The translations under genes were made by a program, and so were the position numbers. DNA of 15,064 nt from Chlamydiia bacterium (GTDB lineage Bacteria > Chlamydiota > Chlamydiia > Chlamydiales > 2-12-FULL-49-11): assembly GCA_044359535.1 (NCBI GenBank), contig JBIKLZ010000031.1, forward strand, positions 1 through 15,064, given 5' to 3'. Below, in pieces: positions 2,858 through 7,107 of this stretch (position 1 is the stretch's first letter; each line of letters begins with the position of its first letter). The notes under the pieces are model-generated. The model ran no database searches. It was not told the origin of the DNA and saw nothing but the letters and a program-made list of their open reading frames with translations.

Positions 2858-5800
2858 TTATATTGAATGTGCATATGCTTCAAGCTCAGATTCAAAATCA
2901 AACTCGATAAATTCATCGACACCCTGATCTTTTTTATCCATCTCAAGTCTATTAACATAGGCTTTATGCCCTGTTCCTGAAGGAATCTTCTGACCTGTGA
3001 TAATATTTGATTTGAAATCAAGAAGATAATCCACTTTTCCTTCACACGAAGCATCCGTAAGAATACGGGTTGTCTCTTGGAACGATGCTGCAGAAAAATA
3101 TGATTCTGTACCTAAGGATGCCTTTGTAATTCCAAGAAGAACTGGAGCTGCTTGTGCAGGTCTTCCCCCTTCTGCAAGAACTTTCTTATTCTGTTTATGG
3201 AATAATTTCTTATCAATATCTTCTCCATATAGGAAAATTGTGTCTCCAGGTTCAGTAATTGTCACCTTCTGAAGCATCTGTCTTACAATGATTTCAATAT
3301 GTTTATCATCGACATCCACCCCTTGAAGACGGTACACTTCTTGGACCTGATTTACAAGGTATTTTTGTAATTCCCTGATACCACATATTTCTAAGATCTC
3401 CTGTGGCTGAATTTCTCCATCGGTAATTTGCTGCCCTTTTTCGACTAAATCGCCTTGTTGGACAATCAAATGTTTTGTTAATGGAATTAAATGTTCCTCT
3501 TCAACACCTGTACTTTCATCTCGAACAATGACAATACGTTTGCTCTTTTGAACACCTTTCATCTCAATAACACCATCAATTTTTGCAATTTCTGCCGCTT
3601 CTTTAGGTTTTCTTGCTTCTACAAGCTCTGCAACCCTTGGAAGACCCCCTGTAATATCCTTTGTTCTTGCTGCTCCTTTTGGAAGACGGGCAAGTTGCTC
3701 ACCGGCCTCAACTTTTCTTCCCTCTTCAGCAGATAGATGGGCTCCAGATGGAATAGCATAGGTTCCAATCAAATCAAGACACTCTTCATCAGAATAGATC
3801 ATAATTTGAGGGTGCAACTCTCCTCTATGTTGTTTAACAACGATTTCAGATTGACCGGTTTGCTTATTGATGGATTTTTGTGTAGAAATACCTTCAACTA
3901 AATCATCAAACTTCACATATCCCCCCTTTTCACAAATGACTGGGTAGTTATGTTGTTCTAAAATAGCAATCCTATCCCCTTTTTTCACAAAGGCCCCATC
4001 TTCGATAAGAATTTGAGTTCCTTGCTCCACATCAACTGTATGTAGGGGCTCAATGGTTTTTTTCAAAACAAGAGTTTTGTACTCATCAATGGTTCTACCT
4101 TCATTACGGACAACATGAATTTTACCATTTTTATTCAAAGCAAGGTTTATCCCCTCTTTGTTTTTAACAGTACGCACCCCTTGATAAATCAATATTCCAT
4201 CTTCAGCTGCATCAATTTCAGGGTTATCTCCCCCTGAAGCAATACCCCCTAATTGGAAGGTTCTCATGGTTAACTGGGTTCCTGGCTCACCAATTGATTG
4301 AGCTGCAATGGTTCCTACTGCCTCACCAAGAGCTACAGGGCGTCCATTTGCTAAGTTTACACCATAGCATTTTGCACAAACCCCTCTATTGCTTTCACAT
4401 GTTAGAGTTGATCTAATTCTAACACTTTCTATTCCAGCATCTTCAATATCCTCTGCTTGCTTTAATGAGAGAATATCCCCAGCTTTAGCAAGAAGCTTTG
4501 TCTTGTCTCCTGGCATGAAAATATCATCACAAACAGATCGACCAAAAATTCTCTCTCTAAGTGGAAGAAGTTCTTCTCCCCCTTGTTTTATTGCCGAAAC
4601 CTCTATTCCGCTTATTGTTCCACAGTCTATCTCATTGATTAAAACATCTTGAGCAACATCAACAAGACGTCTTGTTAAATATCCAGAGTCAGCGGTTTTA
4701 AGAGCTGTATCAGAAAGTCCTTTACGCGCTCCATGAGAAGAAATAAAGTACTCAAGAACACTTAACCCCTCCCTAAAGTTAGAAGTAATTGGGTTTTCAA
4801 TCGTCTCACCATTAGGTTTAGCCATCAATCCCCTCAATCCACCAAGCTGTCTTAACTGAGCTTTATTACCTCTTGCCTCTGAGTCAATCATCATAAAGAT
4901 CGGGTTTAAATCGGTTTTCACTTTAGGCTTCATAATGGTGTTCCATAAGATATCAGAAACATCTGAAGAAACACGATTCCATATCGCCTCAGTTTTAGAT
5001 TTTCTTTCTTTATCTGTAATAATACCGTCAGCATACTGTTTAATAATCACTGCAGCTTTCTTATTAGCCTCAGCAATAATTTCTTGTTTCTCAAGAGGGA
5101 TCTTAATATCTGTAATTCCCATAGATAGAGAAGATTTAGTTGCATGGAAGAACCCTAAGTCTTTCACTGCATCCAAAAATTTCACTGTCTTTTCAAGACC
5201 TACTGTCTTATAAATATTAAGGATCAAAGCCCCTAATTTCTTTCTAGGAAGGCTGTAATTTTGAAAACCAAGCTCTACAGGGACATGCTCATTAAAAAGG
5301 ACACGTCCTGGAGTTGTGGTAATTAAACTGTTGCCAATCTTCACCTGAATTTTTTGGTGTAACCGAATACCCCTTCCAAGGTCATCTTTACGTGCCCCCT
5401 CTTGAAGACCTAAGTGGTTATAGCTTCCTGATGAATACAGGGCTAATAAAACCTCCTCAGGGGATGAAAAAATAGGATTTTTTCCTCCATGGTCCTCATT
5501 ATCGTATACAGGATCATGCATTATGTAATACAACCCTAAAATCATATCTTTTGATGGAATAGCAACAGGTTTACCTGATGAAGGTAAAAAGATATTGTCA
5601 GGAGCCATCATCAACGTTTTTGCTTCAATTTGTGCTTCTACTGAAAGAGGGATGTGTACAGCCATTTGGTCACCGTCAAAGTCAGCGTTAAATGCTGAGC
5701 AAACAAGAGGGTGAACACGAATAGCTTTTCCTTCAATTAAAACAGGCTCAAACGCTTGAAGACCCAATCTATGAAGCGTTGGTGCTCGGTTTAAAAGGAC

Positions 5801-7057
5801 AGGATGGCCTTGAATAATCTCTTCTAATACATCCCATACTCTATCATCTTCTCTTGCAATCATTTTTTTAGCAGAGCGAATGGTATAGACAAAACCATAA
5901 TCCTTTAGTTTTTTGACAATAAAGGGTTCAAAAAGATCCAGTGCCATTTTTTTCGGTAATCCACACTGATTGAATTTAAGATCCGGTCCTACAACAATAA
6001 CTGATCGACCTGAGTAATCCACCCTTTTTCCAAGTAAGTTTTGTCTAAAACGTCCTTGCTTTCCTTTTAACATTTCTGATAAGGATTTTAATGGTCTATT
6101 ACCGGCTCCCATTACTGGATGGCCATGTCTACCGTTGTCAAAAAGAGCGTCAACAGACTCTTGAAGCATCCTTTTTTCGTTTCTAATGATCACATCTGGA
6201 GTTTTTAATCTAAGAATTGACTTGAGTCGATTATTTCTGTTAATAACCCTTCTGTAAAGATCGTTTAAATCAGATGTGGCAAATCTTCCCCCATCTAGAG
6301 GAACCAAAGGTCTTAAATCTGGAGGAATCACAGGGAGTGCATTCATCACCATTGAACTTGCAGAGTTATTTGAATTGGCAAAACCTTCTACAATTTTCAA
6401 TCGCTTAGCAATTTTCATCCTCGCTTGTAAGGATTTTGTTTTTCTTAACTTATCCTTTAAATCGACAACCGTAGCTAATAAATCCTCTGCATCTAAGAGT
6501 GCTTTTATAGCTTCTCCCCCCATCATCGCAGAAAAAGCTTCTTTTCCCCATTTCTCTTTTGCTTCTCTATATTCAGCATCATTTAAGAGTTGTTTTTTTT
6601 CTAAAGTGGTTCTTCCTGGATCAACAACAACATACTCTTCATAATAAATAACCCTTTCTAAATCTCCAGATGTCATCCCAAGGAAGTTTCCAATTCGTGA
6701 AGGTTGTGTCTTAAAAAACCAAATATGTACTACAGGGACAGCTAAGTCGATATGAGCCATTCTCTCTCTACGGACTTTTGATAAAGTCACCTCCACTCCA
6801 CAACGGTCGCAAACAATACCCTTATGTTTGATTTTTTTATATTTACCACAGCCACACTCCCAATCCTTCATTGGGCCAAAAATCTTTTCACAAAACAATC
6901 CACCTTTTTCAGGCTTGAATGTACGGTAGTTAATAGTTTCAGGTTTTTTAATCTCTCCACGAGACCATTTTTCTCGGATTACATCAGAAGATGCAATATT
7001 AATTGCTATATCCTTGAAATATGTTTCATCACTATCATGTTGTTCTTCATTATTCAT
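2858..7057 (-). CDS. rpoC: DNA-directed RNA polymerase subunit beta'
   Basis: NADFDGD catalytic motif, N-terminal Zn ribbon (CGCGKYK..CDRC), bridge helix DTALKTADSGYLTRRL. Start placed at ATG 7057 because GGAG lies 6 nt upstream; the track's TTG at 7069 overlaps that SD. Confidence 0.99.
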   Translation of the reverse strand: MNNEEQHDSDETYFKDIAINIASSDVIREKWSRGEIKKPETINYRTFKPEKGGLFCEKIFGPMKDWECGCGKYKKIKHKGIVCDRCGVEVTLSKVRRERMAHIDLAVPVVHIWFFKTQPSRIGNFLGMTSGDLERVIYYEEYVVVDPGRTTLEKKQLLNDAEYREAKEKWGKEAFSAMMGGEAIKALLDAEDLLATVVDLKDKLRKTKSLQARMKIAKRLKIVEGFANSNNSASSMVMNALPVIPPDLRPLVPLDGGRFATSDLNDLYRRVINRNNRLKSILRLKTPDVIIRNEKRMLQESVDALFDNGRHGHPVMGAGNRPLKSLSEMLKGKQGRFRQNLLGKRVDYSGRSVIVVGPDLKFNQCGLPKKMALDLFEPFIVKKLKDYGFVYTIRSAKKMIAREDDRVWDVLEEIIQGHPVLLNRAPTLHRLGLQAFEPVLIEGKAIRVHPLVCSAFNADFDGDQMAVHIPLSVEAQIEAKTLMMAPDNIFLPSSGKPVAIPSKDMILGLYYIMHDPVYDNEDHGGKNPIFSSPEEVLLALYSSGSYNHLGLQEGARKDDLGRGIRLHQKIQVKIGNSLITTTPGRVLFNEHVPVELGFQNYSLPRKKLGALILNIYKTVGLEKTVKFLDAVKDLGFFHATKSSLSMGITDIKIPLEKQEIIAEANKKAAVIIKQYADGIITDKERKSKTEAIWNRVSSDVSDILWNTIMKPKVKTDLNPIFMMIDSEARGNKAQLRQLGGLRGLMAKPNGETIENPITSNFREGLSVLEYFISSHGARKGLSDTALKTADSGYLTRRLVDVAQDVLINEIDCGTISGIEVSAIKQGGEELLPLRERIFGRSVCDDIFMPGDKTKLLAKAGDILSLKQAEDIEDAGIESVRIRSTLTCESNRGVCAKCYGVNLANGRPVALGEAVGTIAAQSIGEPGTQLTMRTFQLGGIASGGDNPEIDAAEDGILIYQGVRTVKNKEGINLALNKNGKIHVVRNEGRTIDEYKTLVLKKTIEPLHTVDVEQGTQILIEDGAFVKKGDRIAILEQHNYPVICEKGGYVKFDDLVEGISTQKSINKQTGQSEIVVKQHRGELHPQIMIYSDEECLDLIGTYAIPSGAHLSAEEGRKVEAGEQLARLPKGAARTKDITGGLPRVAELVEARKPKEAAEIAKIDGVIEMKGVQKSKRIVIVRDESTGVEEEHLIPLTKHLIVQQGDLVEKGQQITDGEIQPQEILEICGIRELQKYLVNQVQEVYRLQGVDVDDKHIEIIVRQMLQKVTITEPGDTIFLYGEDIDKKLFHKQNKKVLAEGGRPAQAAPVLLGITKASLGTESYFSAASFQETTRILTDASCEGKVDYLLDFKSNIITGQKIPSGTGHKAYVNRLEMDKKDQGVDEFIEFDFESELEAYAHSI

Positions 7058-7107
7058 TAAACTCTCCAAAAGAGGTAAAAATTAAATCTACTTGTTACTT
7101 TATTCTT

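Follow-up and report, generated by a model that had tools for sequence, protein, structure and literature searches.

Among the closest described counterparts of the RNA polymerase considered here is the engineered Escherichia coli enzyme with the β′ H936Q substitution (Mishanina et al. 2017 PNAS, as cited in PMC13198411 and PMC11343019). In the available portions of PMC13198411 (2026), β′ H936 is called universally conserved, the isosteric H936Q replacement is stated to have 'had only very minor effects', a result described as 'finally refuting' a general-acid function, and catalysis is concluded from cryo-EM to be purely positional. According to the accessible text of PMC6237748, H936Q changes backtrack stability. 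The homologous replacement in yeast Rpb1, H1085Q, gives a viable strain that shows a 'slight growth defect' and behaves as a loss of function (PMC5127505, PMC12391331 and PMC3325174, as far as their available text goes); among the other H1085 alleles described in the same part of PMC5127505, K, R, W and Y are severe, A, N, D and F lethal, and L healthy. PMC12391331, in its available portion, calls the residue ultra-conserved and its Gln version 'only moderately defective', and gives the equivalent Pol II His as the target of alpha-amanitin. A natural loss of the 'invariant' His is described in the accessible part of PMC11343019 for plant Pol IV, where Ser898 of NRPD1 occupies the His position. 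This is a specialised extra polymerase whose trigger loop makes no NTP contact and which has lost other conserved residues. No natural bacterial enzyme lacking the trigger-loop His was described in the literature that we searched, which stopped short of subscription journals and of supplements where some may be listed (e.g. Table S5 of PMC13198411).

The rpoC gene of the window (the whole analysed stretch of 15,064 nucleotides) encodes Gln at the position of E. coli β′ H936. It resembles the E. coli H936Q enzyme in the residue affected, the replacement itself, the bacterial origin and a trigger loop that is otherwise consensus. It differs in that the Gln is natural, sits in the cell's only polymerase and in a chlamydial β′, and is known from sequence alone. 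Yeast H1085Q, by comparison, is a laboratory allele of a eukaryotic enzyme, and context effects are reported to differ between polymerases in the available text of the yeast studies. Unlike Pol IV, the polymerase of the window is a housekeeping enzyme that has kept everything but the His. The features of the locus are listed in Table 1.

Table 1. Positions of the rpoC locus, its trigger-loop codon and the neighboring genes in the window.
Feature	Position	Strand	Evidence
rpoC (β′ subunit), 1399 aa from ATG at 7057	2858..7057	-	TIGR02386, 1746 bits
Trigger loop N-terminal arm, G-T-Q-L-T-M-R-T-F-Q-L-G-G	4244..4282	-	Pattern match G000:C39:4245-4282 and alignment
CAA codon, Gln at the E. coli β′ H936 position	4253..4255	-	Direct reading, ORF, PDB-sequence alignment, contigs of three runs
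rpoB (β subunit), 1253 aa, directly upstream of rpoC	7145..10906	-	TIGR02013, 1794 bits
nusG, rplK, rplA, rplJ, rplL, upstream of rpoBC	11017..13654	-	NCBIfam matches above cut-off: L7/L12, L10, L1, L11, NusG
tuf (EF-Tu), cut by the window end	14032..15063	-	TIGR00485, 617.8 bits, profile positions 50-393

The open frame of rpoC extends to a TTG at 7069 and comprises 1403 codons without stops (2858-7069). The full-length product scores 1746.1 bits against TIGR02386 (cut-off 963.5) and thus belongs to the family, membership being unaffected by the Gln at the 936 position. Its translation contains NADFDGDQMAVH, NADFDGD being the catalytic Mg-binding motif of RpoC. The ATG-started protein (P0122) occurs with an identical sequence on three contigs in public protein collections, and the names of the closest public proteins refer to Chlamydiia, Simkaniaceae, Parachlamydia and Chlamydiota MAGs. 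The gene order tuf-nusG-rplK-rplA-rplJ-rplL-rpoB-rpoC is canonical, with rpoC downstream of rpoB. Hence an intact gene in its canonical operon, as claimed in the preliminary description of this DNA, is what we find.

A profile search of the assembly (G000; 1.21 Mb, 57 contigs, 92.6% complete) yielded one rpoC match. A second canonical rpoC, which had been named beforehand as a possible objection, was sought in this 92.6%-complete genome and not found; at this completeness a second copy on an unassembled piece is strictly possible, which constitutes a small gap. In the comparison with the nearest relative, a member of the same genus (G005; 95% amino-acid identity), dN of rpoC equals 0.038 and dS equals 1.85, which gives a ratio of 0.021, i.e. 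about 0.02; the ratio for rpoB is also 0.021. Synonymous sites are saturated at this distance, and therefore even the 'close' relatives are old and rpoC is under strong purifying selection. The single match, the open frame and the purifying selection identify the window rpoC, save for the small gap left by completeness, as that of the sole housekeeping RNAP. The earlier wording 'probably the working RNAP' agrees with these observations and with the canonical operon.

Read on the minus strand from 4282 to 4244, the sequence is GGA ACC CAG TTA ACC ATG AGA ACC TTC CAA TTA GGG GGT, with the translation GTQLTMRTFQLGG. Codon 4255-4253 is CAA (Gln), so that the motif reads TMRTFQLGG in place of TMRTFHxGG; every other residue of the arm corresponds to the bacterial consensus. 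The same Gln is Gln939 in the TTG-started frame (P0001) and Gln935 in the ATG-started public protein. A 61-residue piece was aligned with PDB sequences. Its residues 2-47 match E. coli β′ 898-943 at equal lengths, and since the Gln is residue 40 of the query, it falls on residue 936; in the same manner it falls on residue 1242 of Thermus thermophilus. In the three printed PDB-sequence alignments Q stands opposite H. The minus-strand reading and the alignment together confirm the initial report of CAA, within QLTMRTFQLGG, at the H936 position. Reading of CAA as an amino acid other than Gln was considered and rejected, since CAA (4300-4298) also specifies the conserved Gln in AAQSIG, which lies 15 codons before the variant in the same gene.

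For comparison within the order, 41 related genomes were selected; 38 of them had a match, and 30 loci including the window's own were fetched. All 29 relatives have His at this position, 28 of them recovered by a regular expression (26 CAC and two CAT) and the 29th (L018) observed in the alignment. The window is thus a singleton at the species level. The preliminary description had foreseen that a singleton among relatives that all retain His would tell against the variant; this is indeed the pattern found, and the change behind it is real and either young or restricted to the lineage, not an error. A wider search of a collection of 5.8 billion proteins, scored on the 71 residues around the site, gave no Gln-bearing relative among the best 120 clusters, 119 of which have His and one Arg (P0101). 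In a phylum-wide sample of 401 genomes, 372 of which contain the strict motif, Gln was observed in two (G000 and G337), with 223 motif places beyond those listed individually being known as 'not Gln' only. G337 belongs to another family than G000, and CAC is the codon in each of the six members of its family that were listed.

Several other loci in the phylum are unusual in their own right. L018 (G022:C26, a same-order relative represented by one assembly) has TMNTFHSGG, with Asn for the trigger-loop Arg (E. coli R933 by offset) and an unusual residue following the His. Arg occupies the His position in two further Chlamydiota: as CGC in G143 (G143:C42:12807-12844) and as TFRLGG in P0101. A second rpoC-like piece, which may be a contaminant or an additional copy, is present in the assembly of one relative (G018:C51:627-2747); it shares 45% identity with the window protein, and its own trigger-loop motif is the consensus one with His.

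To cover bacteria in general, 185,579 species-representative genomes were scanned for the strict flanking motif with a purine-ending codon (NNR) at the His position. The scan returned 118 non-His loci, each from a different species: 93 Gln, 15 Arg, 9 Lys and 1 Trp. This is a lower bound, as Asn, Asp, Tyr, Ser, Cys, Phe, the Y-ending codons of Arg and Leu, and divergent motifs are missed (CGC of G143 is an example). The window's own genome is not among the 118 and may be left out by the scan. Single-linkage clustering of the non-His loci over approximately 200 residues resulted in 54 clusters at 80% identity and 66 at 85%, which give an approximate idea of how many origins there were, the clustering having contained no His-bearing sisters. 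Defluviitaleaceae (23 MAGs, all with Gln) and Pseudonocardiaceae (22) form the largest groups. The latter include two cultured genera, Actinokineospora with Gln (CAG) and Actinomycetospora with Lys (AAG). Among the complete genomes checked, Actinokineospora auranticolor DSM 44650 (Gln), Actinomycetospora sp. CA-084318 (Lys) and one alphaproteobacterial chromosome have one rpoC locus each. The bacterial alignment in PMC12391331, which comprises 1403 trigger loops according to its available text, is too small for a variant with a frequency of about 0.05% to be expected. The preliminary description had called the His essentially invariant. As a statement of frequency this stands; as a rule it does not, for the 118 exceptions include whole cultured genera.

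Two of the loci, L061 (identical with G337; 66% identity to the window protein over 968 residues) and L109 (64% over 707), are by this identity further Chlamydiota-like cases. One Pseudonocardiaceae cluster formed at 80% identity contains both Actinokineospora with Gln (L045, L046, L068, L076, L087, L104, L135) and Actinomycetospora together with Pseudonocardia sp. with Lys, AAG (L047, L051, L056, L074, L080, L091, L098, L102). The single base between CAG and AAG suggests that in these cultured, free-living actinomycetes His was replaced first by Gln and then by Lys. In a MAG of candidate division WWE3 (L055) the His position is occupied by Trp (TGG; TFWGGG).

The natural non-His proteins, namely those of Actinokineospora (Gln), Actinomycetospora (Lys), the termite-gut Defluviitaleaceae MAGs (Gln) and G337 (Gln), are similar to the window's RpoC in that the same column is affected and the strict motif is retained around it. 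The lineages are unrelated, and some of them have the change fixed throughout a genus or family, as opposed to one species here. Recent structural papers still call this His universally conserved or invariant (PMC13198411 and PMC11343019, in the available portions), and yet in the window's organism and in 118 other species cells live with Gln, and apparently also with Lys, Arg or Trp, as the only option. Such enzymes are a natural corroboration of the positional-catalyst model. It was proposed in the preliminary description that the window could serve as a natural test of positioning against general-acid catalysis. The activity of engineered His-to-Gln enzymes, on which that proposal relied, is borne out by the accessible text of PMC13198411, PMC5127505 and PMC12391331, while the minor effects of H936Q and the cryo-EM data in the first of these have largely closed the question. 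Moreover, since non-His residues occur in cultured genera, better natural systems exist than the MAG of an uncultured chlamydial organism: Actinokineospora and Actinomycetospora are organisms in which the consequences could be measured. With the engineered test already done and better systems at hand, the value of the window as a natural test is limited. It adds a natural example and not a new test, little beyond one more uncultured case. The broader pattern of at least 118 species lacking the 'universal' His, which we did not find in print, may be more useful.

We consider it probable (about 75%) that the window carries a real, inherited His-to-Gln change in the sole working RNAP, a tolerated and nearly neutral or slightly harmful alteration of a positional catalyst that has reached fixation in a single species-level lineage within a host-dependent group. 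Such a change would have arisen by one transversion, CAC to CAA, at the trigger-loop His of an uncultured freshwater member of Chlamydiia. Gln is near His in size and is still able to form a hydrogen bond. In the closed trigger loop it would, judging from the engineered mutants, still position the β-phosphate of the incoming NTP, and catalysis would proceed by positioning alone. Compared with its His ancestor, the enzyme probably works a little more slowly and probably forms a less stable 1-nt backtracked state, with transcript cleavage presumably supplied by a Gre factor, for which the GreA-like match described below is a candidate. Near-normal nucleotide addition combined with altered backtracking or cleavage would be expected from what the available portions of PMC13198411 and PMC6237748 report for E. 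coli. The mutation may then have been fixed as nearly neutral or slightly harmful in a lineage with small populations and host dependence, with no obvious compensating change. Neutrality is what we infer here; that such changes recur in about 50 lineages and are fixed in entire clades (23 Defluviitaleaceae and 15 Pseudonocardiaceae species) could equally reflect selection.

The latter view, that Gln was selected, either because altered elongation, pausing or backtracking suits the lifestyle or because a natural inhibitor acting at the trigger-loop His or the NTP site is weakened, seems unlikely for the window. It would account for the non-His residues in about 50 sequence clusters and for their fixation in whole clades, including the antibiotic-rich Pseudonocardiaceae, and it is in line with the effect of H936Q on backtrack stability (PMC6237748) and with the attack of alpha-amanitin on the equivalent Pol II residue (PMC12391331), both as given in the accessible text. 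Within the phylum, however, Gln is confined to single species (G000 and, in another family, G337), it is accompanied by no change at invariant columns of β or β′, and the organism has no known inhibitor or phenotype. Besides, many of the Gln lineages are, according to their record titles, host-associated or genome-reduced, conditions under which drift is strong. Taken for bacteria as a whole, the 'universal' His has repeatedly given way to Gln, Lys, Arg or Trp, the species concerned numbering at least 118 and the lineages about 50; selection for retuned pausing, backtracking or fidelity, or for escape from natural inhibitors, is a doubtful explanation of this recurrence. Were it true, the window would represent one fresh species-level origin caught soon after arising.

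Other changes in the two large subunits bear on whether Gln alone would be clearly harmful and is tolerated thanks to second-site changes in the lineage. In the alignment of 30 RpoC proteins, the 29 relatives agree completely at 520 columns, and the window differs at one of these, the His-to-Gln position. The other genomes have from 0 to 33 such singleton changes; therefore their number in the window is ordinary and the position alone is unusual. In RpoB the window differs at none of the 555 columns invariant in the 29 relatives (0-18 in the others). Hence no compensating change was found at the order-invariant columns of β′ (520) and β (555). Comparison with six agreeing relatives from the genus revealed seven lineage-specific substitutions in RpoC (P0122 numbering): A130S, D553E, D577S, I833L, K880R, H935Q and N995T. 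Compensation by some of the six that accompany H935Q would be in line with the trigger-loop epistasis that is widespread in Pol II (PMC12391331, available text). We regard it as improbable, given that all six occupy columns which vary elsewhere in the order and that the single H936Q replacement in E. coli is already minor in effect (PMC13198411, available portion). The preferred reading, a tolerated change without obvious compensation, fits these data.

The preliminary description had also warned of a consensus error. A 2-kb stretch of the window is present in 20 public runs, all of them lake-water or freshwater metagenomes. Logan contigs of four of the 20 (X1-X4) were aligned to the window, so that the evidence is at the level of contigs and not of reads. 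A 1517-base contig of X1 (2020, possibly the source sample) and a 4546-base contig of X2 (2023, another study) cover positions 3254-4298, and a 619-base contig of X3 (2024, another study) covers 3680-4298; each has zero differences from the window. Thus position 4253 is unchanged in three of the four runs, two of them from studies and years other than those of the possible source. X4 is silent on the site, having no contig of this organism over 4053-4279. Each supporting contig carries at least 30 bases of the organism's own flank through 4253. As contigs drop rare variants, a minor His allele is compatible with these data and fixation in the population is thus not proven; the supporting samples, all lake-water metagenomes, may share one lake system.

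The stretch 4254-4315 is common to many organisms (summed depth 383-787, compared to 4-9 elsewhere), and because of this the contigs of the organism end at 4298. Contigs of this organism break at 4254-4315 in all four runs, with the variant base lying exactly at the edge of the stretch. The remaining contigs aligning from 4254 on, which show 2-4 mismatches and flanks unlike those of the window, are from other organisms; their loose ends have ATG or GTG at 4253-4255 of the plus strand, i.e. a His codon. His-bearing sequence with the organism's own flank was not seen among the contig loose ends. The 90% protein cluster of the window's RpoC has five members, P0122 itself included. Another (P0125, from a 47-kb JGI contig) differs from P0122 by two substitutions, L194S and L998S, and has Gln as well; the three others, at 94.6-94.8% identity, all have His. 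The Gln is thus inherited in a species-level lineage that comprises two alleles or more, and samples of three different years contain it.

An error of sequencing, assembly or binning, or a rare allele promoted to consensus, would be invited by the single base between CAA and CAC, by the position of the site at the edge of a 45-base shared stretch, with broken contigs and a summed depth of up to 787, and by the His of all relatives, but it is largely refuted and very improbable in view of the unchanged own-flank contigs from three runs and three years, the identical protein on three public contigs, the second allele with Gln and the lack of a His version with the organism's flank among the loose ends, so that the early suspicion of a consensus error has not been borne out.

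Two minor observations concern other parts of the genome. Downstream of rpoC the window contains three minus-strand ORFs, at 3-1184 (394 aa, open-ended), 1565-2134 (189 aa) and 2125-2658 (177 aa), for which no NCBIfam family match was obtained. Elsewhere in the assembly a GreA-like match (L179, G000:C5:51611-52030) scores 135.3 bits at a cut-off of 139, and it is located inside an open frame of 717 codons, the model itself having 151 positions.
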